The translations under genes were made by a program, and so were the position numbers. Below are positions 4,586 to 64,000 of a DNA stretch of 64,000 nucleotides, piece after piece. Source of the DNA: a bacterium. GTDB lineage: Bacteria; Patescibacteriota; Microgenomatia; Daviesbacterales; UBA10151. The DNA is taken from contig JAJYIE010000001.1 in assembly GCA_021790255.1 (NCBI GenBank), forward strand, positions 4,165 to 68,164, given 5' to 3'. The notes beneath the pieces were generated by a model. The model was given only the letters and a program-made list of their open reading frames with translations, searched no databases and was not told the DNA's origin. How positions within the stretch are numbered: position 1 is the first letter of the stretch; every line of letters begins with the position of its first letter.

Positions 4586-6649
4586 TCATCTTTTATCACT
4601 ATTTACTGTCGTCTGTTCACTGTTCACTTTCTTGGGCTTCGTCCAGGACGCATACTTGCACTTGGGCCAATTTTTGCAGCCATAAAAGGGCCGGCCTTTT
4701 TTAGTCCGCCGCACGACAATTTCTCCGCCGCAATCAGGACAGCGCGCATTAACTTTTTCTTCAATGCTTTCCGTATATTTGCACTCCGGAAAACCGGTAC
4801 AAGCCAAAAACTTGCCGAATTTACCATATTTTACCTGCAAATTTTTGCCGCATTTGGGGCAAACTTTATCCGTTACCTCGCTTGCTATCTGCATCTTCTC
4901 CGCGTTTTCTGAAACCTCATTCAGCTTTTTCTCAAAAGGAGTGTAAAATTCCTCGATTGTCGGCTGCCACCTTCTTTCCCCGCGGGCAATCTCATCCAGC
5001 TCATCCTCCATCCGGGCCGTAAAATCATAATCAACAATATCCGGGAAATACTGAAGTAGAAAATCGGTAACTGCTATCCCCAAAGGGGTGGGGATAAACT
5101 TCTTTTCCATTTTTTCCACATAATAACGATCCTGGATTGTGGAAATGATCGGGGCGTATGTAGAGGGCCGCCCAATTCCCAGCTCTTCTAATTTTTTGAT
5201 CAGCGAAGCTTCGTTGTAGCGCGGAGGTGGCTCAGTAAAATGCTGAACCGGCATAAGCTGCAATAAACTCAGCCTATCGTCAGTATTAAGCACCGGCAAA
5301 TGCTGTCCTTTTTCATCTTTCTCTTCTTCATCAGCCCCTTTACCATAAGCTTTCAGCCAACCATCAAACTTAATTACGCTTCCGCTAGCACGAAGTAAAA
5401 ACTTACTTCCATTATTTTCCGCCTTTACATCAACTGTGGTTTGGTTCAAAACCGCCTCGCTCATCTGGCAGGCCAATGCCCGTTTCCAGATTAGTTCATA
5501 TAAACGCACATGGTCACGGGTCATCCCATCCATCATCTTCAACTGCTCACTCCCAAGACGAATATCAGTCGGCCTAACCGCCTCATGCGCCTCCTGAGCC
5601 ACCTTGGACTTGGTTTTATAAAAACGGGGGCTACCTGGCAGATAAGCCTTGCCCACCTGCTGCTCAATATAATTCCTGATTGCCCCAACTGCCTGAGTTG
5701 ATAAATTAACTGAATCCGTCCTCATATAAGTAATCAATCCCCGCTCATATAAAGTCTGGGCCACCATCATTGTTTTTTTGGCTGAAAAACCCAGGCGGGA
5801 AGAAGCAGTCTGCTGTATGGTTGAGGTGGTAAATGGCGGAGCAGGATATTTGCGGACTTCTCTAGTGTTTACCGATGACACCTTGTAAGTAGCAGCCTGC
5901 AGCTGCTTTGTGATCTCACCCGCCACCTCACCATTTGGGATTTCTACTTTTTTGCCGTCTTGTTCAATTAAAGTGGCAACGAAATTAGCATTTTTTCTCT
6001 CTGCCGCTTCCAGGTTCGCCTCAACACTCCAAAACTCGATAGGATTGAATGCCTGAACTTCCCGCTCCCGCTCAACAATTAACCGCAGTGCTACTGACTG
6101 CACCCGCCCGGCTGAGAGTCCCGATTTTACTTTTTTCCAAAGAAGAGGGGAAAGTTTATAACCTACAACCCGGTCGAGTACCCGCCGGCCCTGCTGGGCA
6201 TCAACCAACTGGAGATCAATGTCACGGGGGTGCTCAAAAGCCTCCTTAATTGCCCCCTCGGTAATTTCATGAAACTCCACCCGACGAATTGTGGGCAACT
6301 GGCTCTTAGCGCGCGGCTCGCGGGTCTTTTTCTTATCAGCCCCCAACCCCCCACCCGCTACTAGCTCCTGCAAATGCCAGGCAATCGCTTCCCCTTCCCG
6401 GTCAGGATCTGTGGCAAGCCATAAATTTTTGGCGGATGCGGCCGCTTTTTTTAACTCATTAACTTTTTTTAACTTATCCCGCGGGATAATATAGCGGGGA
6501 GTAAAGTGGTGCTCAATATCCACACCCAGCTCTGATTTGGGCAGATCGCGGATATGTCCCATTGAGGCCTCAACCTGATATTTGCCTCCCAAAAATTTTC
6601 CCAGTGTCCGGGCTTTGGTCGGTGATTCAACAATAACAAGATTTTGCAT
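4586..6649 (-). CDS. topA: DNA topoisomerase I.
   Basis: 687 aa. TOPRIM N-terminus MQNLVIVESPTKARTLGKFLG, active-site region ITYMRTDS, and C-terminal CxxC zinc ribbons (CPKCG...CPDCGG). Confidence 0.95.
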   Translation of the reverse strand: MQNLVIVESPTKARTLGKFLGGKYQVEASMGHIRDLPKSELGVDIEHHFTPRYIIPRDKLKKVNELKKAAASAKNLWLATDPDREGEAIAWHLQELVAGGGLGADKKKTREPRAKSQLPTIRRVEFHEITEGAIKEAFEHPRDIDLQLVDAQQGRRVLDRVVGYKLSPLLWKKVKSGLSAGRVQSVALRLIVEREREVQAFNPIEFWSVEANLEAAERKNANFVATLIEQDGKKVEIPNGEVAGEITKQLQAATYKVSSVNTREVRKYPAPPFTTSTIQQTASSRLGFSAKKTMMVAQTLYERGLITYMRTDSVNLSTQAVGAIRNYIEQQVGKAYLPGSPRFYKTKSKVAQEAHEAVRPTDIRLGSEQLKMMDGMTRDHVRLYELIWKRALACQMSEAVLNQTTVDVKAENNGSKFLLRASGSVIKFDGWLKAYGKGADEEEKDEKGQHLPVLNTDDRLSLLQLMPVQHFTEPPPRYNEASLIKKLEELGIGRPSTYAPIISTIQDRYYVEKMEKKFIPTPLGIAVTDFLLQYFPDIVDYDFTARMEDELDEIARGERRWQPTIEEFYTPFEKKLNEVSENAEKMQIASEVTDKVCPKCGKNLQVKYGKFGKFLACTGFPECKYTESIEEKVNARCPDCGGEIVVRRTKKGRPFYGCKNWPKCKYASWTKPKKVNSEQTTVNSDKR

Positions 6650-24313: not shown

Positions 24314-26587
24314 ATGAGATTTAAAAAACCGCTACTTTCTCCTAACAGTCTCTGCATTCACTCTCACACACAACTTGATAGACAAACCGAAACGAGGCAA
24401 GCACCTTTTTTTGTCTTGAAAAAAATCTTCAGTATTAACTCTTCCGACCTTATCATTGCGGGACTTTCTATTTTAGCCTTTTTAATATTTGTACCCGTTT
24501 TCACATATGCATATTTTGCCAATGATCTTGTCAGCACTGATGCAATTATGAATAAAAACGATACCGGGATTGTTCTTTATGACCGGTCTGGCCGACCCTT
24601 TTTTACCTTTTACCAGGGTCAGCCGAAAAATTATATCCCCTTTGCGTCTATCCCCAAATACACCCAGCAGGCAATCATTGCCATGGAGGATAAAGATTTT
24701 TATTCCCACCCCGGCTTTTCTGTCCCCGCCATTGTCCGGGCCATGTGGGAAGATATACTGAGCCGTAACCTCTCTTATGGAGGTTCAACCATTACCCAGC
24801 AGTTGGTAAAAAATTCCCTTCTTACATCACGCAAGGATTTCTTACGAAAATACCAGGAGGTGGTTTTGGCCAGTGAAATCGAACGCCGCTACAGTAAAAA
24901 TCAAATTCTTGAGATGTACCTTAACTCTGTTTACTTTGGTGAAGGGTCATTCGGGGTGGAAGAAGCTGCACAAACATATTTTGGCACGGACGCAAAAAAT
25001 CTGGACCTGGCCCAGTCTGCTTTCCTGGCAGCACTCCTCCCTGCTCCATCCGCCCTCTCTCCTTTTCATGGAGACTTAGCTGCTGCCCGTGACAGGCAAA
25101 AATATATTTTGGGGAAGATGGCAGAGCAAGGATATATCACCCAAAAGCAGGCAGATCAAGCTGTCGCAGAGCCGCTGATCTTCCATCCTCCGGCTGATCC
25201 AATTAACTCTCAGGCTATCCATTTTGCTTTAATGGTTCGGGATGAGCTGGTCCAAAAATACGGCGAGGAACAAGTTTCCCGAGCTGGTTTACATGTAAAA
25301 ACCACCCTGGATTTAGGGCTCCAGGAATTTGCCCAGCAGGTAGTAGCCCAGCAGGTAGCCCGGCTTGCTCCCGACAACGTCAGCAACGGGGCAGCTGTGG
25401 TGATTGACCCCAAAACCGGAGAAATTCTGGCTATGGTTGGCAGCGCTGATTGGAATAACCCTAAATTTGGCAAAGTCAATGTTACACTGATGCCCCGCCA
25501 GCCGGGATCTTCTTTTAAACCGATTTATTATTCTGCAGCCCTTGATAAAGACATTATTACTCCAGCAACCATCTTAACGGACACTCCGACAACATTTCCC
25601 GGCGGATACAAACCGCATGATTATGACAATCAATTTTGGGGATCATTAACCGTGCGCCAGGCACTGGCAAACTCCCGCAATGTCCCCTCAGTGGAAGTGA
25701 TGAATAAATTAGGCGTGTTGAATGCTGTGGACCAAGCCCACGCCCTAGGGATTACTACCCTGCAGGATCCTTCCCAATACGGTTTGGCTCTGGCCCTGGG
25801 GGCCGGGGATGTCCGGCTGCTGGATCTTACCGGCGCCTATGCGGCCTTTGCCGACCAAGGCATGTACAATATCCCGACCTCTGTACTGCAGATCAAAGAC
25901 AAAAATAACAACATAATTTATTCCTACCAGCCCACTCCCAGTGAAGCTGTCTCACCACAGGCAGCATTTCTTATCTCCTCCATTTTATCTGATAACAATG
26001 CCCGGGCCCGGGAATTCGGCAACCTTTTGACAATTAGCCGCACTGCTGCCGTCAAGACAGGCACTACTGAGAATTACCGCGATTCACTAACTTTAGGCTA
26101 CACCCCATCTGTTACCGTGGGAGTATGGGTGGGCAACAATGACGGGGCGCCGATGGACAATGTGGCCGGGTCGCTGGGTGCAGCCCCAATTTGGAAGGCA
26201 ATTATGGAACATTACCTCGCCGGCACTCCCGTTGAGCAATTTATCCCTCCCCCCGGTATTATTTCTGCCACTACCTGTACAAGTATCTCCCAGCCAACTC
26301 CCACTCCGCCTCCCGGCAAGGAGCCTCCCGCAGCAAATAAACAAAGTTTGGTTTCCGGCGAAAATAAAACTACGGTTGTTCGCTTCAGTGAATATTTTAT
26401 TCAGGGAACCCAGCTGCGCAACCTTTGTCCAGGCACAAATTCTACGCCAGAAGGCCACAGTCAAAACCTGCCTCCGGTATTAACACCACTGCCGCTCACG
26501 ACTTTTTATCTGCCTTCCCCTGCCCCATCGCCAACTGCACCACCCACCCCGATGATCTCACTACCCGCTCCAACTCCAAATCCGTAA
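24314..26587 (+). CDS. mrcA: Class A penicillin-binding protein (PBP1A; glycosyltransferase GT51 plus transpeptidase) with a Pro-rich C-terminal tail.
   Basis: GT51 motifs AMEDKDFYSHPGF and GGSTITQQLVKN. Transpeptidase motifs SSFKP, SRN and KTGTT. Confidence 0.9.
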   Translation: MRFKKPLLSPNSLCIHSHTQLDRQTETRQAPFFVLKKIFSINSSDLIIAGLSILAFLIFVPVFTYAYFANDLVSTDAIMNKNDTGIVLYDRSGRPFFTFYQGQPKNYIPFASIPKYTQQAIIAMEDKDFYSHPGFSVPAIVRAMWEDILSRNLSYGGSTITQQLVKNSLLTSRKDFLRKYQEVVLASEIERRYSKNQILEMYLNSVYFGEGSFGVEEAAQTYFGTDAKNLDLAQSAFLAALLPAPSALSPFHGDLAAARDRQKYILGKMAEQGYITQKQADQAVAEPLIFHPPADPINSQAIHFALMVRDELVQKYGEEQVSRAGLHVKTTLDLGLQEFAQQVVAQQVARLAPDNVSNGAAVVIDPKTGEILAMVGSADWNNPKFGKVNVTLMPRQPGSSFKPIYYSAALDKDIITPATILTDTPTTFPGGYKPHDYDNQFWGSLTVRQALANSRNVPSVEVMNKLGVLNAVDQAHALGITTLQDPSQYGLALALGAGDVRLLDLTGAYAAFADQGMYNIPTSVLQIKDKNNNIIYSYQPTPSEAVSPQAAFLISSILSDNNARAREFGNLLTISRTAAVKTGTTENYRDSLTLGYTPSVTVGVWVGNNDGAPMDNVAGSLGAAPIWKAIMEHYLAGTPVEQFIPPPGIISATTCTSISQPTPTPPPGKEPPAANKQSLVSGENKTTVVRFSEYFIQGTQLRNLCPGTNSTPEGHSQNLPPVLTPLPLTTFYLPSPAPSPTAPPTPMISLPAPTPNP

Positions 26588-26609
26588 AATATTCTTACCT
26601 TACGCTTAC

Positions 26610-26638
26610 TTGACTGCCCAAAAGTGTTTTGCTACTAT
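26610..26638 (+). promoter_or_regulatory. Sigma-70-like promoter: TTGACT, 17-nt spacer, TACTAT.
   Basis: Hexamers at 26610..26615 and 26633..26638 with a 17-nt spacer, inside a 335-bp non-coding region. Confidence 0.35.
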
Positions 26639-26663
26639 ATAAGTGCCTTAAAAAGGCAAGTAG

Positions 26664-26816
26664 ATGGGTCAAAACCCAAGCCCTACTCGGTACGTTTACA
26701 ATCTAAAGAGTATTTTTCCTCCATCGTTTACCTACTACGGGTTAACCTGGAAGTTGATCCTGATTAAATCGGGGTCGCAGGGTTCCCACCTGTTAGTTTT
26801 GGGGAAAAAGCTTTAG
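26664..26816 (+). CDS. Candidate 50-aa small ORF. The alternative reading is that this whole region is a non-coding RNA or leader.
   Basis: AAGG Shine-Dalgarno sequence 8 nt upstream of the ATG. The ORF MGQNPSPTRYVYNLKSIFPPSFTYYGLTWKLILIKSGSQGSHLLVLGKKL ends 30 nt before a strong terminator. No homology recognised. Confidence 0.2.
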   Translation: MGQNPSPTRYVYNLKSIFPPSFTYYGLTWKLILIKSGSQGSHLLVLGKKL

Positions 26817-26847
26817 ATTACGGCCAAGTGGGGTGAAATTATTCTGT

Positions 26848-26876
26848 CCAGTCCCGTTTCCGGGGCTGGATTTTTT
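26848..26876 (+). terminator. Rho-independent terminator.
   Basis: Stem CCAGTCCCG / CGGGGCTGG (9 bp, one G-U pair), loop TTTC, then A and TTTTTT. Confidence 0.7.
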
Positions 26877-26922
26877 GTAGCCACTTTGACAACAAACTTA
26901 AAATCTTCTAATATTCCAAGCT

Positions 26923-27669
26923 ATGGTTGAGTCAATCAATTATCATACTATCTGGGGTCAACAAGCAGACCGCTTAGCTTATCTATTCGCCCCCGAGCTT
27001 GGTTTATCCAGAGACCAGTATATTGATCATCTGCCCCAATTTGCTCCTCAAGGTAAGGCCGATAAAGGCGTTTTTGATTTCCCACTCTTGGTACAAACTG
27101 CCACCCCAAATCTGACACTGGTGAGAATTTGTGAGGTTACCGGTATTAACGTAGGGTCACCAAACATCGACGAAATGGTAGATTGGCGAGACGATATGAT
27201 TATAAAAATGTGGCGTGATAAAAGAAGCGATACAATAACTAGCGCCACTGTAGACTGGAGTAATGATCCAAAAAAGTTTCGGACTCCCTCTGCACCTTAC
27301 TCAACCTGGATAAATACAAGGATTCAAAAAGACAACAGCGCTTATCAGACCAGAGCCGGCTTAACTTCTCAAGAACGTGGGGGAACAATTTATGACGGTT
27401 TATCACTCTTAATCCAAAAACCTGAGCTTTTAGACAGAGAGGGTCTTGCCCTGCCGGGATCTGAATACTTTTTTGACTTCTTCTTCTCAGATGAAGGTAC
27501 CGTCATTATACTTACTCAAGAGAGTAATCATAAAATCCTAGGTTTTGGTTATGCTGGTCTTAACTATGCCGGGTTTCAGTCCAAATTCCATCCACCCACA
27601 GGCTGTCTGGTAGCCAGCAGAAAAATTGCTACTAAGCGGCGCCAACCTCCAAGTGGCCAAAAACCCTAA
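26923..27669 (+). CDS. Hypothetical protein.
   Basis: 248 aa with no domain recognised. Located directly downstream of the terminator and leader region. Confidence 0.5.
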   Translation: MVESINYHTIWGQQADRLAYLFAPELGLSRDQYIDHLPQFAPQGKADKGVFDFPLLVQTATPNLTLVRICEVTGINVGSPNIDEMVDWRDDMIIKMWRDKRSDTITSATVDWSNDPKKFRTPSAPYSTWINTRIQKDNSAYQTRAGLTSQERGGTIYDGLSLLIQKPELLDREGLALPGSEYFFDFFFSDEGTVIILTQESNHKILGFGYAGLNYAGFQSKFHPPTGCLVASRKIATKRRQPPSGQKP

Positions 27670-54704: not shown

Positions 54705-56974
54705 TTGGCCGTTTTCTCCACTGCAGCGGAGGGGCTGGCTAAGTTATCCGTCTGAGCCGCTGTTTCCCCTGTTTGCTTAGAGGACTTATCCTGCAGATCA
54801 GAAATCATACTCTGGGCTTCCTGGGCCAGTTCCCCGTCACCGCTTCCTAAGACTGACAGATAATCCTGCAAATAATTTATGGCGCTCGCGTAATCCGGCG
54901 GTTTCTTCTCGTACCCATAAATTCTTCCCAAACCTGCCAGTGCTTCCTTAAAATAAGGGTCAATCTGAAGCACCCGCTTATATTGGGTAATGGCATCATC
55001 ATATAGTTTCACCTGTTCAAAAACATACCCCAGATTATAGAAATGACGGCTGTAGTAAAAGATAATTAATCCTTCAAAGAGCGGGGCATCCCTTTTTATT
55101 CTGGCAAACGATGCTAAATCCAGGCTGTTCCAGAATTTGTCGTTTTCTGCCCGGTAATCCTCCAGCTTCAGGCTCTTTCCGGACTTCAAAACCAAAAAGA
55201 GCATATTTTTCGGCCAGAGGGTATATTTTTGCTCAAGCTCAGGGTCATGAACCACCAAGTCCGGGTTAACATAAATGGGGCGTCTACCGTAGTTTGCATT
55301 AACCAATTGAGTAGTAGATGTGAACACTTTCCCGGGTTTAGGCGTCGGAATGACTAAATCAGGGTAGCGTGCTTTCAGTTGCGGGATAAACCAGGCGAGG
55401 TGGAACTGGCCGGGCGAAAAAGTAACCATGTGATCTTTTCCTTTCTGCTGCACGTAGCGGAAATAGTCCATGGTCATGCCGGCAATATCACCCGACTGCA
55501 ACACCAGGGCGTTATCCGGAAGACCGGCGTAAGCTGCTTGCGTATAATCAATTGTCGCTGTCCCCGCCCGGCCGTTGGCACGGTCGAAATTTATAAGGAA
55601 AGGGGTGACAAAAGAGGTTATAAGCAGCACTTTGCCGATGGCCAGTCCGAATCTCTGATCAGCGGAGCCACTCAGAATTTTATTCTTAATCGAGAATACC
55701 CCGTCTGCTTGCAGCGAGGATGAATCAATCACAGAAGAACCTGCCCGGGGGGAAACCTCGCCAGCTTTGCTGCGAGGTAGTTCATTAAATAATTTATATA
55801 TCATCAGCAGTCCGAATGCTATAAAAAGAGTAACAAAAATGTTCGGCAGCATAAAAAACCGTGCCGCTGTTGCCTGGCTGAAATCATCTCCCAGAGGGAA
55901 ATCGGCGTAAGCAAGAAAAAGAAAGCCGCTTACAAAAAAACCCGTGCTGATAAAAATAAGTATCCGGTGAAAGGCAAGGGGCCTCCCCCGCCCCTCCTTC
56001 CACAGATAGAAAATACCGGCCACAGCAAAGATTGCCCCGATGATCGAAAAATCAAGGACAATATATTTCAAGTAAAACCAGGCCTCCTCAAACACAGACG
56101 GCGCGCCGCTGGTATCCGATCCGGCCAGGTAGGCAGAAAAAGTCCCGAAGTCCTGGCGGGTTAGGGCGCTTATCGCATCCGGAATAGTTTTTATACCCCC
56201 CCAATTAAGCGGCGGGTTTTTTGAGGCAATAAAGATCAGCAAAAATACATACGGCAGAATCCCCACTAAAAAAGCCGGAATTATCAAAGCGGCCCTGGAC
56301 GGGCTCTTGAAGATATTTACTACCGGGGTTGTTAAAAGCAGAAAAAATACCGCCGGGAAAACCAACACCGCTGTTTCATGATGTGAGAAGGCAAATCCGG
56401 ACAAAACCGCCAAAATCAGCAGCATTTTTAAAGAGCTTAGAAAGGAAATGGTTGGCGCCGATTTAAACTTCCGGCAAATCCGCACCGTGATAAACAGGAT
56501 ACTTACTACAAAAAAGTTGTTTAGGGGAAACACTTCAAATTTAGTGGCATACTGCCAAAAAACAGTGTTAAAAGCTAAAAACATGCCGGCGGTAAATGCA
56601 ACCAGATAGTAGCCAGTTTCCGGGTCCTTATCCAGCCCGGAGTCCGGCAACCGGCGAGAGTCTGAGTCAGCGAGCCTGAAAAGATCCAGCACCAGAAAAT
56701 AAAACACGAGCACGCTCAAAGCTTGAAGGAGCGCGGAAACCGCATTAATCCGCTCAATCGGGTTAAGCGGCAGCGGCAGTTCGTAAGCAATATGGCCCAA
56801 AAGCGTATTGACCGGGTAGCTTGGTTGGTGCGGTACTCCCAGCACCACGGCGGCAGTGACCATTTCAGTACTATCTCCGGCAGATATGGAGGGCGATAAA
56901 GTAAAAATATAGACGCAAAAAGGTATTAAAAAGGCCAAAAGGGCAACCAGTTGTTTAAAAATAATTTTTTTCAT
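54701..56974 (-). CDS. DUF2723/TMTC-like polytopic membrane protein with C-terminal TPR repeats.
   Basis: N-terminal SAGDSTEMV motif region. About 11 TM helices. TPR-like repeats (YDDAITQYKRVLQIDPYFKEALAGLGRIY). Confidence 0.65.
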   Translation of the reverse strand: MKKIIFKQLVALLAFLIPFCVYIFTLSPSISAGDSTEMVTAAVVLGVPHQPSYPVNTLLGHIAYELPLPLNPIERINAVSALLQALSVLVFYFLVLDLFRLADSDSRRLPDSGLDKDPETGYYLVAFTAGMFLAFNTVFWQYATKFEVFPLNNFFVVSILFITVRICRKFKSAPTISFLSSLKMLLILAVLSGFAFSHHETAVLVFPAVFFLLLTTPVVNIFKSPSRAALIIPAFLVGILPYVFLLIFIASKNPPLNWGGIKTIPDAISALTRQDFGTFSAYLAGSDTSGAPSVFEEAWFYLKYIVLDFSIIGAIFAVAGIFYLWKEGRGRPLAFHRILIFISTGFFVSGFLFLAYADFPLGDDFSQATAARFFMLPNIFVTLFIAFGLLMIYKLFNELPRSKAGEVSPRAGSSVIDSSSLQADGVFSIKNKILSGSADQRFGLAIGKVLLITSFVTPFLINFDRANGRAGTATIDYTQAAYAGLPDNALVLQSGDIAGMTMDYFRYVQQKGKDHMVTFSPGQFHLAWFIPQLKARYPDLVIPTPKPGKVFTSTTQLVNANYGRRPIYVNPDLVVHDPELEQKYTLWPKNMLFLVLKSGKSLKLEDYRAENDKFWNSLDLASFARIKRDAPLFEGLIIFYYSRHFYNLGYVFEQVKLYDDAITQYKRVLQIDPYFKEALAGLGRIYGYEKKPPDYASAINYLQDYLSVLGSGDGELAQEAQSMISDLQDKSSKQTGETAAQTDNLASPSAAVEKTAK

Positions 56975-56981
56975 ATAAGTT

Positions 56982-59900
56982 TTACCCGCTTCCCGGGCCC
57001 GACCTGAAATTGTTTTTAGCGGTTTTCAGTAAATTTATCTTATGCGTCGAGCCTCTCCCTCTTTTTCCCTGGGTTTTTCTTCTAACAAACAGGGGGATTA
57101 GGACACCCAAGGACAGCAGATAGACGAGCCTTTCCGGAATAATAATATAGTTCCAGTTTAAAGTATACGGAGAGGATGTGCCTGAGGTCCACTCGGCAAA
57201 GACCCTTCCTGAGGCAGGCAGACTGGCAGTAAGGTAACGGGGAGTGGTGCCTGTCGTCCAGCCTGTTGAGGCCTCTTTGGTCCCCCATGATCCTGAGAAG
57301 TAGCGGGAATAATAAATTGCCGGAGTGGCGCTTTTAATATACAGAACATAAATATCTCCGTTGGCAGTATCCGAGGTGATACTTACAGATGACATCCCGC
57401 CTGTTGAGTCAACTCTGGTAGGTGAAGCGTCCCATGAAGTGCCGTTGTATTTTTTATACTGGACATAACCTGAGGAGTCAATGTAAGCAAGATGGGTATT
57501 ATAACTTGAGTCAAAGGTTGTCGAGATACCGTTGGCAAAGCCTGTCTGGCCGGTAGCAATACTGTCCAGCGTTTGCCAACCGGATCCGGAAATCCACTTC
57601 TTGCCTTCAATTGCTGTCCCGCGAATCCAGGTAGCGTAAATATTGCCTGAGGCAGCAGGTTCCAGGGCCCCGTAAAGGTTGGGGTCGGTATTTGTGCCTG
57701 AAGAAAGTGAAACGGCTGCGTTCCAGCTCGAGGGATTCTGGATACTGGTTGACTGGACGCCATACATGGCAATATAGCGGCCGCCGGTCGTGCTGTATGA
57801 TTGACCCAAGACCCAAAGGTAACCGTTGGTGTCCTGGCCGATATACGCCAGATGGTATAAAGAAGACGAGGAACCAGTCAAGGCAACATAGCCCGAAGCA
57901 TCCCAGCTGATATTGGTGGCAGAAACCGTGCCGCGCCTGACCATAATGCTGTATGAGTTGGCCCCGGTTGTTTCAAAATAGGCAATATATATATAGGAAG
58001 AAGAGTAGTCTTTAAAGACTGAAAAATCAGCTGTGTTTTCCGCCAAAGGTGAAATAGCCGTCCAGCCGGTATTCCAGGGAGAGGCGCTGTATTCAATCTT
58101 AATATCCAGGCCGGTGCTGTCATACGAGAAGCGCCAGTAAGATCCGCCGGTGGCATCATAAAAAGTTTTTCTCTGGAAAGAGTAAGCAGTAATCCCGCCG
58201 TCTGCCGCCCCGCCGCAGGTATCAGAGGTAATAACCCAGTTACTATTGTCTCCCGAGTCGGATGAATCAATTGCCCCAATCCGCGCTATATTATTTGAGT
58301 CTTTAATGTCGGCAAACCTGACGGCTCCCGTTGCCGAGACATTTAAAGCATACTGGCTGCCTGCTAAATCTGAATACAGCTTGACTTTACTGCTGCAGGC
58401 TCCCCCGCTCGCTGTAAGCGTCCCCGTCACATTCGTCTGGTGAAGATGGTCAAAGTCAACCTCCTTTGAGGCGGTAGAAACGGTTAGGTTATAAAAGCTG
58501 GTGGCAACAGAGTATGTAAGAACCGATGCCCCGGCTCCGTTGAATGTAACCGTGCCGGAGTTGGCGGTAAAAGTGCCGTTATTGGTAAAGTTGCCGGAGA
58601 TGGTAAAACCAGCAGAGCCGGAGGCAGAGAAGGTATGGCCGGAGCCGATCGTCAAGTTGCCGGTGATATTTATGGCAGGATTGTTAGTGCTTGCATTGAC
58701 GGTTAAAGTCCCTGCTCCTGAAGTAGTAAAATTCCCGTTAACAGTCAGTGTACCGCTGTTTAAATAATAAATTTGTGTGCCTGAGGCCGGAGCAAAACTT
58801 AAAGCATTATAAGTTGTAGCCTCAATATCAGAGGCAGATGTGCCGGTAAAGGTGGTAGTTGCGGGGGCAGTAAATGTCCCTCCGTTAATATAAAGGGGCC
58901 GGGATGTTGTTTGTCCTGAACCGGTTAAAGTTAATGTTTCTGTTGACCCGGAATATGTTCCCCCTGTAACAATATGGAGTTCTGGTGTGGTTACATTTGT
59001 TCCGGGAGCGTATGATCCCATTACGTGCAGCTCTGATCCTGAAACAGTTAAATTATTGCTTCCATCACAGGTAAAAAGGTTATCCCCTGAGGGAGGATAA
59101 GTGGAAAAAGAGCATATATTGGCATTTGTTGTAGAGGAGGAGTTATTGTTGGTAACAGCCAGCCTTCCTATGTATAAGTTGAGGTTGGAGATGGTAGCAG
59201 CGCCAAAAATGGTAGTTGTGTTGGCATTATTTGTGGCTCCGGAAATATAAACCATCACTTTGGCTCCGGCCGCGGCAGTTATGCCTGAGAAAGTAAATGT
59301 GCTTTGACCTGCAGAAACAGTTGTGGTGGTTGGAGCAGCGTTATTGACGGACAAAGCTACGGTATAACCTGTGGTATCAGGGGTCGTCTCGTCAGATTGG
59401 TAAATAGTCCCGCCGATTGAAGGGTACGGGGTAAACGGCGACCCGGTAATTGTCACGCCGGTATCGTAGTTCAGGTAACCGTCAGCCTGGAAGATTTTGT
59501 AGGAGTAAGTAGTCCCATTAGTGACAGTCGTATCAGTGCAGTTGACAGCCGTGGAGTAAGCATCGGTTGTTCTCACACAGGCCACAGTTGCACTGCCGAT
59601 GGTATTCCCGGCGCTGTAACTTGAGCCTTCTGCCGGGACATCAGATCCGGGGGTCGAGGCGGTCCAGCGCAGGAGCACCGACTGGGAAAAGTCGGTGCTT
59701 GAAGAGGTGGTCCAGTTGATGGTCACGGAGTTGCCCCCAACCGACCCCGAAGTTGAGGTAGCCCCGTTGGGTGAGAGGTTGTCAATTGTGACGGTAGCTG
59801 AGGCACCGTCGCTACCAGCATGGGCATTAGTGGAAGTAAAAGCGGTGACTGTCCCTGTTATGGCGTACGATCCCCCCGGAGGAGCAGGCATGGCTGAGGC

Positions 59901-62900
59901 GGATTTGGGGGTGATGCGCACTTTGAAGGTGGTAAGGGTGGTTGTCACAGCGATGTTGCAGCCGGTAAAGCTTAAAGTTGTCGAGGCGGGGTTGGTAATG
60001 GAGGTGCACTGGGCGGTGTTGGAGGTGTCGGTAATATCCGCCTGGCCGATACCGGTGTAGGAGTTTAAGGTCACCGTTAGGGCAGTTACCGTATCGGTCG
60101 CGGCGGAAGTTTGCAGAGTAAAAGCATCCAAATCGGTGGCAGCCCCACCCGGGCCGATGGTGACATTGGAGGGATTTGTCCCGTCCCCTAAGGTAGTGGT
60201 TTTGGGGTCAAGTGCCAATTGCCAGGGGTGAAGCTCAGTAAAAATAACCTGTCCTTTCTCAGAAACCCTGGACGGGCCTAAAGCATACAAAGCCGGGGAG
60301 ATTTTTGGGGCCTGATAAGTATAACTTAAGGTTGCGCTCTTCCCCGCCGCTAGGTTAATATTCCAGTCAATCTTCTGATCGGTCATCCCTGCTCCATTAT
60401 TTTGGATTCCTGCCTGCGCAGAAATGACGGAAGATGCAGAAGCGGGAGAAACGGATTTGATGACAAAGCCTGCAGGAACCGCCTCTTCTACCACTCCGTT
60501 GGTAATCCGCCGGGCGGCTGTTACCTTCATAGTCATGGTGTAAGCGGACAGGAAAGGATTGATTCTGGTAGCCCCGACTCTTTGAATAGCCAGCGGATCA
60601 CCACTCCTCACCACAAAAAAGGATGAGGCGTCAGCTCCGTTGTCGGTGTTGGTCAGCTGAATGTCATATTGTCCGGCGGAGAAGGTTGAAATATAGGCAA
60701 AATAGTCCGGCGAATTGGTAAAATTATCCGGCCCGCATGTTGGTGATGTCCGAACCCCGGGGTGCAAAACTACCCCCTCAGGAGTTGTAACAGTCAGAGT
60801 CAGGTTAGAGGTGCAGAGGGTGTGTCCGTTATTATCTAACGAGGCCATCTGAATATAGGCGCTTTCCCCTGATACATAAACTGTCTTGTCAGTATTTATG
60901 GCCAAGACTCCCCACAAAAAGTCCTGGCTCATAACCTTGCCTGATGAACCGGTGATTTGCAGTGTCATTTTTCCCGGGTGGGTACCCTGAGGAAAGTTTA
61001 GCTGCAGGCTGTGACTGCTTCCGTTTGTCTGGGCGCTGCTTGAAAAGTTGACCTTTTCGCCAAAGGAGTCCAAAACCGTAAAGCGGTAGAAGGAGGCTGC
61101 GTGACCACCCAGGTTGATATTTACGGATTCCCCTGCCTGGTATGCTTTCTTCGGCAAGGCAAAGGTCGGATCAAAGAACGAGTTTATTGCCGGGGTTGGA
61201 GTGGTGGTTGGGGCCAGAGTAACTGCCGCTGCCGGGGTATCGCTATACACTACCCACGGGTTTCCTTCCTCAAAAACGCTCACCAATTGCGCTTGTGGTG
61301 CCGTCAGCTCCTGCGCCAAGACCCGGGTCGCTCCAATCTCCCCAATACCCCCAACCTGAACGTGTGATAGTGTTTGCAGTATTGCGTGATAGATTGATGT
61401 AGTGATGGAAGTAATTTCGTTGATAACCCCTGCAAACAAATTACCACCTGAAGTTACCGGTTGTAATCCGGACACCGCTTTGCTGCCGTTTGCAAGGTAA
61501 GCTTGAAATGCAGGAGATGCTGTCGCCGAAGCTCCCAATATCTGAGCTGATGGTGTGGCAGAAACCGTTGATTCTGTTAACTTGTTACTGCGAGCCGAAG
61601 GCAGAGTGGGGGTGGGCGTTATCTCTTTTTCCTGCTGAATTATAAGCGGTCCGAATGAATAATCAACCGGCGAGGCAGCAGAGGTTTGGAAAATGTATGA
61701 AAACCCCGCTGCCTTACCTCCCTTTAAATTAACTGTCCAGGTTAAGGTAGCCGAACCGTCTAAATTGGGAGTTTGAGTAAGTCCGGTGGAAGGCTGGACA
61801 CTCGCCACGCTCACCCCCGCAGGTACAGTTTCTTTTACCAAACCCGTGAAGTCATCTACGGTGGTGAGGGTAAACTTCATCCGCTGGTCCCCGTCTTTGG
61901 AATAGATCCTGACAGGAGCCTGTCTTGTGACGGTAAACTGCGGCTTAACCTCAGTTTTGATATATGAGGTAATAGCCGCATTTGTATCAGTATTTATCAG
62001 TGTGATAGTGTATGTACCTACCTCGGATAAGGTGAAGGCTGAGGTGTAATCAGGGTTTTGCGGTGTCTGGCCAGCCCGGCAGTTGTGAACTTGCATTATG
62101 GCCGGTTTTAATGTTAGGCCCGACGGCGTGGTAATGGTTAAAGCAAGGTTTGCATCGCACAAAAGGTGGCCCGAATCTCCGGTTGCTTCCATATAGAGAC
62201 TGGCCCTTTCCCCTACTTTGTACAAAGAGGAGCTGCTGTTTAGCGCCAAAGTCCCCCAGCTAAACGGCAGGGAAATTACTTTTCCTCCTGTGTCAGTTAA
62301 GCTAAGGGTATATTTTCCGGGGACAAACGTTCCTTTTTGGGTAATAACTAAAACATCAGACCCTGTACCATCTTCTTCGCTTATTACAACCGGCACAACC
62401 TCCCCGTTGTAACTGGTTAGTTTTACACCCAGATGGTCCAGGTGAGACGAGCCGATGTTCACCTTCACCACCTCTTCTGCCTTAAGGCTTGTCTTCTCTA
62501 AACTCATCTGACCGGTTAGATCTGATGGTTGGTTGAGCCCCGAAAACTTGCCGCTTAAAAAATCCTTCAGTGATAGAACAGGAGAGAGAATAGCGGGCAG
62601 GGAGCCGGAAGAGGTCGAAGATGGGGATGAAGAGGCAGAAGGCGCTACAGTGGGAGTGGGTCCCGGAGCAGGGGTAGGAACAATTGTTGGTGCAGGCATT
62701 GTGGTTGGCGTGGGTGTGTTGTCACCAGCGGAGGAAGCGGCAGCGACAACTCCGGAATCTGATACTGAAGGCCGGGATGATGATGCTGCAGGTGTGGGCG
62801 TGGGGGTAACTGATATAGTTTGAGCACTTTGGCTAGCCTCAGATGAGGTATTTTGCAAGATTTGGGATGAACCACTTTGCACAGCGCCAGGGGCAAGAAG

Positions 62901-64000
62901 TACACCTGATGATGTGCCCTGGGCATAAGCCGGAGCAGGGCTAAAGTATGGAGCATAGGGGGCCAAAGATAGAACGGTATTGGTTACGAGCAGGAGCATG
63001 GCAAGAAATGCTTTTGATGCATAGCGCCAGCCGCGCCTTGGCAGGGCAAATGAATCAAAGCGTGAGTTTGCAGATGTCAGGGCGAGGTAGGGTGTGGCGG
63101 AACTGTTAGCAGACAGACTGAATGCCGCCCTGGAACCTGAGAAAATCCCTGACACAAGACGGTAAAACGTTCCCCTGGTAAATACATCCGTGACCCTTCC
63201 TGTTTTGGGTGTCCTGAACCACCCACCCTCTTTTTCTTCGGTAAACCCTTTGACGGCAGCATAAGCCTGGAATGGCACGATTAGGTAACATAGAACAACA
63301 AATGAGGCAATTCCAAGGTAATCTTTTTCCTCTGACTCTTCCAGAAAAAGCCCGACGATATTTACAAGGGGAAGGGATAACATATTTGTGAGAACCAGCG
63401 ACCAGCCCCAAAGAGATGTCCAGAAAGGAAGCCTGACCTGGAAAGCCACCTCAGCCAAAAGCCAGGAAAAAGTCCCCAAAAGAAAGAAGAAGGCCTGAAG
63501 ATAATACGGGGCAAGGTATACTGTTTCAAACTTTTCTGCTCCGGTTAAGTTTTGGGAAACAAGAAGTTTTCTGAGCATCAGCTTAATATTAAAAGAGTGC
63601 CCCTCCGCCCATCGCATCCTCTGTCTGATAAGCCTCTTGAATGTTGACACACACTCTGCGGGAGCCTGAATGTATGGAGTGTAAACTACTTTATAGCCCG
63701 CCTCATAAAGGCGCAGGGTCAACTCAAAATCTTCAGTAATGGACGACCCCCAGCCCACCTTCTGCAGCGGATCTTTGCGGATCATATACACTGAGCCTGA
63801 GATCATCTTCAGCCCCCCGTAAAGCTCAGTTCCGGCACGCTCGATAACATAAGATCCTGCATACTCGGTTCTTATCCCTCTGGTAATCCAGTTTTCTGAT
63901 TTGTTTAAAACATGCCACTGGTATCCCTGAACTGCTGCAACTTTGGAGCTGGTGTAATCTTCTGATCCGTTATTTTGTACTTTGAAATACTTTAAGAAGA
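56982..64000 (-). CDS. Giant fusion protein, partial (N-terminus beyond the window end). A GT2 processive glycosyltransferase catalytic/TM module is fused to a ~2,000-aa Ser/Thr-rich extracellular multi-domain region with a C-terminal TM anchor.
   Basis: The 2274-aa ORF is extended manually in frame to position 63998 (FLKYFKVQNNGSEDYTSS...). It carries the GT2 ITEDFE and QRMRW (QxxRW) motifs, then ~5 TM helices. Next comes a PT-rich linker and two paralogous ~300-aa modules. After that is an NxT/GxT-rich beta-helix-like repeat region and a Y/W-rich blade-like repeat region. The sequence ends with LVYLLSLGVLIPLFV followed by RRK. Confidence 0.8.
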   Translation of the reverse strand, partial: FLKYFKVQNNGSEDYTSSKVAAVQGYQWHVLNKSENWITRGIRTEYAGSYVIERAGTELYGGLKMISGSVYMIRKDPLQKVGWGSSITEDFELTLRLYEAGYKVVYTPYIQAPAECVSTFKRLIRQRMRWAEGHSFNIKLMLRKLLVSQNLTGAEKFETVYLAPYYLQAFFFLLGTFSWLLAEVAFQVRLPFWTSLWGWSLVLTNMLSLPLVNIVGLFLEESEEKDYLGIASFVVLCYLIVPFQAYAAVKGFTEEKEGGWFRTPKTGRVTDVFTRGTFYRLVSGIFSGSRAAFSLSANSSATPYLALTSANSRFDSFALPRRGWRYASKAFLAMLLLVTNTVLSLAPYAPYFSPAPAYAQGTSSGVLLAPGAVQSGSSQILQNTSSEASQSAQTISVTPTPTPAASSSRPSVSDSGVVAAASSAGDNTPTPTTMPAPTIVPTPAPGPTPTVAPSASSSPSSTSSGSLPAILSPVLSLKDFLSGKFSGLNQPSDLTGQMSLEKTSLKAEEVVKVNIGSSHLDHLGVKLTSYNGEVVPVVISEEDGTGSDVLVITQKGTFVPGKYTLSLTDTGGKVISLPFSWGTLALNSSSSLYKVGERASLYMEATGDSGHLLCDANLALTITTPSGLTLKPAIMQVHNCRAGQTPQNPDYTSAFTLSEVGTYTITLINTDTNAAITSYIKTEVKPQFTVTRQAPVRIYSKDGDQRMKFTLTTVDDFTGLVKETVPAGVSVASVQPSTGLTQTPNLDGSATLTWTVNLKGGKAAGFSYIFQTSAASPVDYSFGPLIIQQEKEITPTPTLPSARSNKLTESTVSATPSAQILGASATASPAFQAYLANGSKAVSGLQPVTSGGNLFAGVINEITSITTSIYHAILQTLSHVQVGGIGEIGATRVLAQELTAPQAQLVSVFEEGNPWVVYSDTPAAAVTLAPTTTPTPAINSFFDPTFALPKKAYQAGESVNINLGGHAASFYRFTVLDSFGEKVNFSSSAQTNGSSHSLQLNFPQGTHPGKMTLQITGSSGKVMSQDFLWGVLAINTDKTVYVSGESAYIQMASLDNNGHTLCTSNLTLTVTTPEGVVLHPGVRTSPTCGPDNFTNSPDYFAYISTFSAGQYDIQLTNTDNGADASSFFVVRSGDPLAIQRVGATRINPFLSAYTMTMKVTAARRITNGVVEEAVPAGFVIKSVSPASASSVISAQAGIQNNGAGMTDQKIDWNINLAAGKSATLSYTYQAPKISPALYALGPSRVSEKGQVIFTELHPWQLALDPKTTTLGDGTNPSNVTIGPGGAATDLDAFTLQTSAATDTVTALTVTLNSYTGIGQADITDTSNTAQCTSITNPASTTLSFTGCNIAVTTTLTTFKVRITPKSASAMPAPPGGSYAITGTVTAFTSTNAHAGSDGASATVTIDNLSPNGATSTSGSVGGNSVTINWTTSSSTDFSQSVLLRWTASTPGSDVPAEGSSYSAGNTIGSATVACVRTTDAYSTAVNCTDTTVTNGTTYSYKIFQADGYLNYDTGVTITGSPFTPYPSIGGTIYQSDETTPDTTGYTVALSVNNAAPTTTTVSAGQSTFTFSGITAAAGAKVMVYISGATNNANTTTIFGAATISNLNLYIGRLAVTNNNSSSTTNANICSFSTYPPSGDNLFTCDGSNNLTVSGSELHVMGSYAPGTNVTTPELHIVTGGTYSGSTETLTLTGSGQTTSRPLYINGGTFTAPATTTFTGTSASDIEATTYNALSFAPASGTQIYYLNSGTLTVNGNFTTSGAGTLTVNASTNNPAINITGNLTIGSGHTFSASGSAGFTISGNFTNNGTFTANSGTVTFNGAGASVLTYSVATSFYNLTVSTASKEVDFDHLHQTNVTGTLTASGGACSSKVKLYSDLAGSQYALNVSATGAVRFADIKDSNNIARIGAIDSSDSGDNSNWVITSDTCGGAADGGITAYSFQRKTFYDATGGSYWRFSYDSTGLDIKIEYSASPWNTGWTAISPLAENTADFSVFKDYSSSYIYIAYFETTGANSYSIMVRRGTVSATNISWDASGYVALTGSSSSLYHLAYIGQDTNGYLWVLGQSYSTTGGRYIAMYGVQSTSIQNPSSWNAAVSLSSGTNTDPNLYGALEPAASGNIYATWIRGTAIEGKKWISGSGWQTLDSIATGQTGFANGISTTFDSSYNTHLAYIDSSGYVQYKKYNGTSWDASPTRVDSTGGMSSVSITSDTANGDIYVLYIKSATPAIYYSRYFSGSWGTKEASTGWTTGTTPRYLTASLPASGRVFAEWTSGTSSPYTLNWNYIIIPERLVYLLSLGVLIPLFVRRKTQGKRGRGSTHKINLLKTAKNNFRSGPGSG

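Follow-up and report, generated by a model that had tools for sequence, protein, structure and literature searches.

What is encoded in the 335 bp that separate a gene for a PBP1A-family penicillin-binding protein (PBP) from an orphan open reading frame (ORF) of 248 amino acids in contig JAJYIE010000001.1 of a Daviesbacterales bacterium? This gap occupies positions 26588..26922 of the 64,000-nucleotide stretch analyzed here (the window), the PBP1A ORF ending at 26587 and the 248-aa ORF starting at 26923. A preliminary description of the DNA had singled out the gap as non-coding, with a promoter and a terminator, and had offered three options: a structured RNA, a protein of 50 amino acids, or a leader of the downstream gene. 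Its borders are confirmed, and an independent gene call of the identical DNA (locus L001) also places no gene there; the gap itself is real, but several others in the window exceed 300 bp, so that its prominence is relative. From sequence comparison it is near certain that the gap holds a real, conserved and independently transcribed structured RNA gene. By analogy, we consider it probable that its product is a divergent 6S-type RNA (ssrS-like) of a lineage within the candidate phyla radiation (CPR), which would sequester the RNA polymerase (RNAP) holoenzyme and be released from it by synthesis of a short product RNA (pRNA).

The transcription unit and its homologs

The proposed sigma-70-type promoter, TTGACT-17-TACTAT at 26610..26638, is present; nine of its 12 positions agree with the consensus and a TGn extension is found at 26630..26632. 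The motif alone is not beyond chance: promoter-like sites number 25 in 14 kb, and shuffled sequence yields 19.6 +/- 4.6. Neither promoter-like nor terminator-like motifs as a class are enriched over shuffles, and each by itself is weak evidence. The promoter is credible because the same arrangement, TTGAC[AT]-17-TA[CA]n[AG]T, lies upstream of all nine known members of the family described below, the -35 sequence TTGAC being invariant and the spacer usually ending in TGn. Transcription is predicted to start at about 26643..26645.

The terminator that had been placed at 26848..26876 is the same hairpin as ours, its 9-bp core lying within a stem of 11 pairs including wobble ends (26846..26871), of which seven are G-C, with a TTTC loop and T6 at 26871..26876. 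To call it the only strong terminator of the window was a fair simplification. It ranks first by G-C pairs among 109 terminator-like sites in the 64 kb, the next best having at most six, and some of the next-best sites that were placed fall inside listed ORFs. A hairpin followed by a U-run is found 3' of the RNA core in eight of the nine family members; the contig of L085 ends before this point. Read from the sequence, the predicted primary transcript runs from approximately 26645 to approximately 26876, that is, about 232 nt of non-coding RNA between a conserved promoter and terminator, in agreement with the unit of some 230 nt suggested earlier. The delimited transcript folds at -89.5 kcal/mol (z = -5.5), and none of 200 dinucleotide shuffles folded as well.

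In L084, L085 and L086, three contigs that carry homologs, a separate terminator-like hairpin and T-run (read by eye) follow the stop codon of the PBP gene and precede the promoter of the RNA. Only 22 nt separate stop codon and promoter in the window, and no such hairpin is seen there. Because this short spacer lacks a separate hairpin, read-through from the PBP gene into the RNA is possible in the window's genome.

Two covariance models (CMs) were employed, R1 being a single-sequence model built on a 6S-like structure and R2 a six-sequence model. Eight further distinct homologs were found in Microgenomates-group (CPR/Patescibacteria) contigs, with scores of 81-94 bits (R1) and 116-155 bits (R2); the nine distinct sequences are that of the window and those of L084, L085, L086, L093, L095, L097 (= L098), L099 and L100 (= L101). 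Among contigs with the closest PBP orthologs (60-65% amino-acid identity) the element is found directly downstream of the PBP gene in L084, L085 and L086. A metagenome pattern scan with ACCTNCTACGGGN{25,55}TTCCCACCTG had seven matches. Two of them, L093 (90.4 bits) and L095 (81.2 bits), are homologs; the remaining five (L089-L092 and L094) were chance occurrences with no CM match. L097, L099 and L100 were found with R2, again downstream of PBP orthologs. Pairwise identity is 62-97% among the nine sequences and 66-75% between the window and the others. Synteny is loose: seven homologs follow an orthologous PBP1A gene (in L095 the order is PBP, then RNA), while that of L093 directly follows an M50 peptidase gene and is itself followed by two tRNAs. 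The window has a single copy of the gene.

Searches of more distant loci were negative. Blastn and nhmmer comparisons of the gap with 82 loci yielded only the identical copy in L001. R1 and R2 with default filters revealed no homolog at 80 PBP loci of species-representative genomes (Daviesbacteria, Levybacteria, Gottesmanbacteria and others), nor did a search with filters off of the two closest of these, L003 and L004. Rfam scans of the distant PBP loci gave tRNAs only.

Comparative alignment, one of the checks proposed in the preliminary description, was carried out on the nine sequences and shows strong covariation. In the paired columns, 92.7% of the cells are canonical, as against 41.9-59.3% with the 3' partners displaced by one to three columns. 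Double compensatory changes are present in 22 of the 49 pairs, spread over six helices, and none of 500 shuffles reached the observed value of any of five measures. Such changes affect nine of ten pairs in the apical hairpin and seven of nine in helix H2; H3 and the GGG/CCC clamp are invariant in sequence, the clamp having G-C at all three pairs in 9/9 sequences. RNAalifold, run independently, recovered the outer stems and the apical hairpin. Many G-U pairs, among them a U-G pair that is invariant, identify the plus strand as the functional one. Of the three options, it is the structured RNA with its own promoter and terminator that these data favor.

The coding option fares differently. No ORF of at least 30 amino acids is found on the minus strand of the gap, and only three on the plus strand touch it: one of 62 aa (26425..26613), most of which overlaps the terminal part of the PBP gene, one of 47 aa (26624..26767) and one of 50 aa (26664..26816). 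The last of these had been put forward as a small-protein gene and indeed has an ATG at 26664 with AAGG a few bases upstream. It is, however, confined to the window: over the same region the longest ATG-initiated ORFs of the eight homologs have 0-25 codons and are unrelated, and the equivalent ATG in L084 and L085 meets a stop after nine codons. Substitutions in this region follow base-pairing, not codon structure, and the 50-aa product has no Pfam or NCBIfam match. We give this interpretation virtually no chance; the ORF was rejected as not conserved and should not be called as a gene.

The third option was that the element is a cis-acting 5' leader, attenuator or riboswitch of the 248-aa gene, in keeping with the presence of a strong terminator 47 nt upstream of that ORF on the same strand. 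The gene located 3' of the RNA nevertheless varies among the homologs: L086, L093 and, as judged by eye, L084 carry tRNA genes at this place, L097 carries an HNH gene, and small ORFs with no relation to one another follow in L099 and L100. The 248-aa ORF is itself a near-orphan, and its sole distant homolog (L002) is preceded by a 41-nt gap without the RNA. A separate promoter at 26886..26914 stands between the terminator and the ORF, no riboswitch family was matched in the Rfam scans, and no conserved antiterminator alternative was seen. A role as leader is highly improbable and was rejected.

Relation to 6S RNA

The predicted RNA consists of a 5' module, a rod-shaped core and a terminator (Table 1). 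A hairpin corresponding to HP1 begins about 7 nt past the -10 element in every homolog with a different sequence (GUCAC/GUGAC, GCCC/GGGC, CAUUUGG/CCAAAUG). The linker that follows, AAGUAGAU(G), is kept in 8/9 homologs. No consistent pairing partner for it was found in the 3' tail or the bubble; its GUAG/UAGAU is complementary to CUAC/AUCUA of the bubble template strand, again without establishing a consistent partner. HP2 is present in all homologs, though varying in sequence and length, and L097 and L099 possess a third hairpin. These 5' hairpins probably stabilize the RNA or mark a processing site. Of the eight complete homologs, seven have the short tail [AG]AA[AC]U[UC]AU between core and terminator.

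The strands of the predicted central bubble are nearly invariant, the 5' strand in 8/9 homologs, and TTCCCACCTG is invariant in 9/9. The exception is L100, whose 5' strand carries AAUCUAUAAA in place of AACCUACUAC with no compensating change opposite, which fits an unpaired loop while not being proof of one.

In the preliminary description no resemblance to 6S RNA had been recognized by eye, and an Rfam search had been advised. At gathering scores that search returns nothing for the whole 64-kb window; a permissive scan of 26400..27100, on the other hand, gives one significant match, to RF00013 (6S/SsrS; 29.6 bits, E = 4.2e-4), in which the whole model (1-187) is aligned to 26677..26838 on the plus strand. 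6S is the one Rfam family that the RNA resembles, though below the gathering score. Narrow scans of relatives gave RF00013 at 31.5 bits for L093 (E = 5.8e-5), 27.0 for L100 (E = 6.9e-4) and 19.3 for L095 (E = 0.047), each match again being full-length (1-187) and located exactly at the coordinates set by the family's own CMs. RF00013 was the top match in three of the four narrow scans, had the lowest E-value in all four, and was the only Rfam family with E < 0.01.

The resemblance extends to detail. In the alignment with the 6S consensus the closing stem corresponds to CCCUACUCGGUACG / CGGCCAAGUGGGG and the bubble-adjacent helix to UUUUUCCUCC / GGGGAAAAA, while the two bubble strands, AUCGUUUACCUACUAC (16 nt) and ACCUGUUAGUUUU (13 nt), align without insertions or deletions to the consensus loops. 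The RNA has GGG, CCCACCUG and CGGC where the consensus shows them as conserved (uppercase) letters, and the predicted bubble of 16-17/13 nt with its invariant GGG/CCC clamp has the dimensions of 6S RNA. Comparative data also support an extended closing stem and an internal stem with a terminal loop, as in 6S.

Several observations weigh against this assignment. All RF00013 scores (19-32 bits) lie well below the gathering score of 46.4, and the E-values are calibrated on random sequence, so that long hairpin-like RNAs are favored against a rod-shaped model. Rfam scans of the homolog loci over 8 kb and 40 kb gave no 6S match; because narrow scans recover it, this loss is a filter or search-space effect. 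In the reciprocal direction R2, with filters off, did not match ssrS at the E. coli locus (L096 1484..1666), the best chance match there scoring 7.5 bits; this reciprocal test is weak, since R2, with an effective sequence number of 1.32, is narrow. The family is known only from nine close relatives, and L087 and L088 (PBP about 60% identical) as well as the 80 distant PBP loci have no copy within approximately 6 kb of the PBP gene. The bubble, being invariant in sequence, is a region where covariation cannot show unpairedness, and the minimum free energy fold (-58.5 kcal/mol) pairs part of it, as against -52.4 for the 6S-like fold. Lastly, canonical 6S RNAs have no counterpart of the conserved 5' extension with its two hairpins (three in some homologs) and AAGUAGAU, a module that is unusual for 6S and recalls Ms1. 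Judged by its architecture, the RNA would function as a 6S. Formal membership of the 6S family is not established, because the gathering-score and reciprocal tests failed.

These points raise the alternative of a lineage-specific structured sRNA unrelated to 6S and not acting on RNAP, for instance a protein-binding or scaffold RNA. The shortfall of 15-27 bits under the 6S gathering score, the blindness of the family model to E. coli ssrS, the additional 5' hairpins and linker absent from canonical 6S, and the narrow known distribution all speak for it. Yet no other Rfam family reaches E < 0.01 in the narrow scans, and every 6S match covers the full model and keeps the register of helices for which covariation is independent support; the 16/13 bubble, the GGG/CCC clamp, CCCACCUG and CGGC coincide with the 6S consensus; and the potential to form the collapse hairpin described below is conserved. 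We regard an RNA unrelated to 6S as rather unlikely.

If the product is a 6S-type RNA, the rod with its open bubble would imitate a melted promoter and bind the RpoD-containing RNAP holoenzyme, damping sigma-70-dependent transcription during starvation or other non-growth. On return of nucleotides the polymerase would use the 5' strand of the bubble as a template, starting opposite U26724 or C26725; this start is set by analogy with that of E. coli 6S RNA, which we take to be U44. It would then read into H3 and produce a short pRNA of roughly 5'-(G)AUGGAGGAAAAAUAC. Antisense to 26710..26725, the predicted pRNA would be 5'-AUGGAGGAAAAAUAC, or 5'-AUGGAGG... / GAUGGAGG... Its synthesis would unzip H3, whereupon GGGGAA (26801..), no longer held in that helix, could base-pair with UUCCCACC, an invariant part of the bubble's 3' strand, so that the bubble would collapse and the polymerase be released. 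With the 5' strand of H3 blocked in silico, UUCCCACC(UG) can pair with the freed (CA)GGGGAA in 9/9 sequences, at -5.4 to -12.2 kcal/mol, the predicted collapse hairpins having the form UUCCC(A)CC(UG)/(CA)GGGGAA in all nine homologs. The counterpart hairpin of E. coli 6S, CCUUGAACC/GGUUCAAGG, has a value of -13.4 kcal/mol.

Two further alternatives retain an action on the polymerase. The actinobacterial RNA Ms1 is a 6S-like rod of about 300 nt with a central bubble and extra short terminal hairpins, which binds the core RNAP (PMC9130861). An Ms1-like RNA, 6S-shaped and with extra terminal hairpins, would bind the core rather than the holoenzyme and regulate the level or storage of polymerase; the extra 5' hairpins and the 3' terminator hairpin on either side of a 6S-like rod are reminiscent of it. 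Against this, Ms1 was identified in Actinobacteria and is longer than the gap RNA (about 232 nt, from a CPR host), narrow scans gave no meaningful Rfam match other than 6S, and the invariant bubble, the 6S consensus motifs and the potential for a pRNA-type switch fit a holoenzyme-binding 6S better. We consider an Ms1-like RNA very unlikely. It is also conceivable, though quite unlikely in our estimation, that the RNA represents a distinct, CPR-specific class of polymerase-binding RNA, in whose mature form the 5' module is retained and contributes a function that classical 6S does not have. One possibility is that this module, with its two covarying hairpins and AAGUAGAU, auto-inhibits pRNA initiation and thereby gates the release of RNAP; another is Ms1-like binding of the core polymerase.

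Other identities were also considered. Signal recognition particle (SRP) RNA was rejected, no SRP family being matched even at E <= 10. So were transfer-messenger RNA (tmRNA) and tRNA, a search for both detecting none in the whole 64-kb window.

Neighboring genes and coordinates

The gene order around the gap is M50 peptidase, PBP1A, gap and orphan ORF, followed by NifU/NifS on the opposite strand. Among species-representative genomes the best relatives of the PBP, at 40-60% identity, are from metagenome-assembled genomes (MAGs) of Daviesbacteria, Levybacteria, Roizmanbacteria, Gottesmanbacteria and other Patescibacteria. The window is therefore assigned to a Microgenomates-group CPR bacterium that has no close representative in that collection. 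The C-terminus of the PBP (approximately 26290..26587) is a Pro/Thr-rich low-complexity tail, and most alignments with homologs stop at about residues 640-700 of 757. Among the best matches to the PBP, many (L004, L006, L009, L014 and others) are titled "uncultured Gammaproteobacteria ... binchicken"; because the nearest named relatives are Microgenomates-group CPR bacteria, these titles look like placeholder or wrong taxonomy.

The 248-aa ORF has, besides the identical sequence, one distant homolog (41% identity, 195 aa) in a collection of 5.8 billion proteins. No Shine-Dalgarno sequence is visible in front of it. The position of its promoter suggests that this orphan may be expressed as a leaderless mRNA. 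It sits where relatives have tRNA genes, which lie directly 3' of the RNA terminator in L084 (approximately 3437), L086 (5448..5579) and L093 (1105..1253).

On a larger scale, GC skew on the plus strand stays negative throughout the first 56 kb, at about -0.1 to -0.2, and is positive from approximately 56-58 kb, its cumulative minimum being near 56 kb. This switch near 56000..58000 may mark a replication origin or terminus, or may simply reflect the strand bias of a 2274-aa ORF at 56982..63806 on the minus strand.

Table 1. Coordinates of the predicted RNA gene, its parts, its neighbors and three related loci (window positions unless a contig is named)
Feature	Position	Strand	Remarks
PBP1A-family penicillin-binding protein gene	24314..26587	+	Transgly and Transpeptidase domains, TIGR02074
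Sigma-70-type promoter	26610..26638	+	-35 TTGACT 26610..26615, 17-nt spacer, -10 TACTAT 26633..26638
Leader hairpin HP1	26645..26657	+	GCCUU-AAA-AAGGC at the predicted 5' end
Linker motif AAGUAGAU	26658..26665	+	Predicted single-stranded, between HP1 and HP2
Leader hairpin HP2	26666..26677	+	GGGU-CAAA-ACCC
6S-like core, 162 nt	26677..26838	+	From RF00013 alignment and covariation
Closing stem	26680..26695 with 26820..26834	+	Part of core
Helix H2	26700..26708 with 26811..26819	+	Part of core
Helix H3	26713..26721 with 26801..26809	+	Part of core, adjoins bubble
Central bubble, 5' strand, C-AUCGUUUACCUACUAC	26722..26738	+	Predicted template strand; aligns without indels to the 16-nt 6S loop
GGG clamp	26739..26741	+	Pairs with CCC 26785..26787; closes bubble on the apical side
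Apical hairpin	26755..26777	+	Beyond internal stem; sequence-variable
CCC clamp and bubble 3' strand ACCUGUUAGUUUU (13 nt)	26785..26800	+	Stretch UUCCCACCUG invariant
Intrinsic terminator	26846..26876	+	GUCCAGUCCCG-UUUC-CGGGGCUGGAU then U6
Second sigma-70-like promoter, TTGACA-17-TAATAT	26886..26914	+	10/12 consensus match; 8 nt from its end to the start codon of the 248-aa ORF
248-aa ORF	26923..27669	+	No Pfam or NCBIfam match
Homolog in L084	3180..3339		R1 92.6 bits
Homolog in L085	3239..3393		Cut by contig end before terminator
Homolog in L086	5192..5351		R1 94.2 bits
Terminator-like hairpins, read by eye	L084 3060..3105; L085 3125..3160; L086 ~5110..5145		3' of the PBP gene and 5' of the RNA promoter

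Significance and comparison with known systems

Few regulators are known from CPR/Patescibacteria, a very large bacterial branch whose members have tiny genomes and are for the most part uncultured. A literature search, with most subscription journals outside its scope, found no report linking 6S RNA with CPR, Patescibacteria, Saccharibacteria or Microgenomates. Should a 6S-type RNA have been retained here, a global brake on RNAP would survive extreme genome reduction, and standard annotation, using Rfam at the gathering score, would miss this RNA. The nine-sequence alignment and its model could then seed a new 6S subfamily and permit a survey of CPR genomes. The ends of the transcript, the sequence of the pRNA and the collapse hairpin are offered as predictions. 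Should the RNA instead belong to a CPR-specific class, the global control of transcription in ultra-small symbiotic bacteria would seem to follow a different logic. For local annotation, the 50-aa ORF is to be dropped, and the 248-aa orphan would be given its own, possibly leaderless, promoter.

Of the known systems, bacterial SRP (4.5S) RNA shares with the gap RNA a rod-like hairpin with conserved internal loops encoded by a stand-alone gene. It differs in that the apical loop of the gap RNA and its flanks are not conserved (UUAAA, CUUAG, CUUUG, CUAAAUG), and in the GGAA/GNAR tetraloop and domain IV motif, which the gap RNA does not possess. No sequence or CM similarity to Ms1 was detected, and it is the 6S consensus motifs that the gap RNA shares instead.

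The comparison with 6S/SsrS RNA (RF00013; E. coli ssrS and B. subtilis 6S-1) is the closest. Besides the 5' extension, the gap RNA differs in an apical domain some 25 nt shorter than the consensus, in ending with its own intrinsic terminator, and in its host, a CPR bacterium. Both are encoded by stand-alone genes under a sigma-70-type promoter, and both have a rod core of about 160 nt that comprises a closing stem, a central bubble of 16/13 nt (predicted in the gap RNA), an internal stem and an apical loop. They also share the GGG/CCC clamp, CCCACCUG at the 3' edge of the bubble, CGGC in the 3' part of the closing stem and, in silico, a 3' bubble strand able to fold into a hairpin when the helix next to it is opened.

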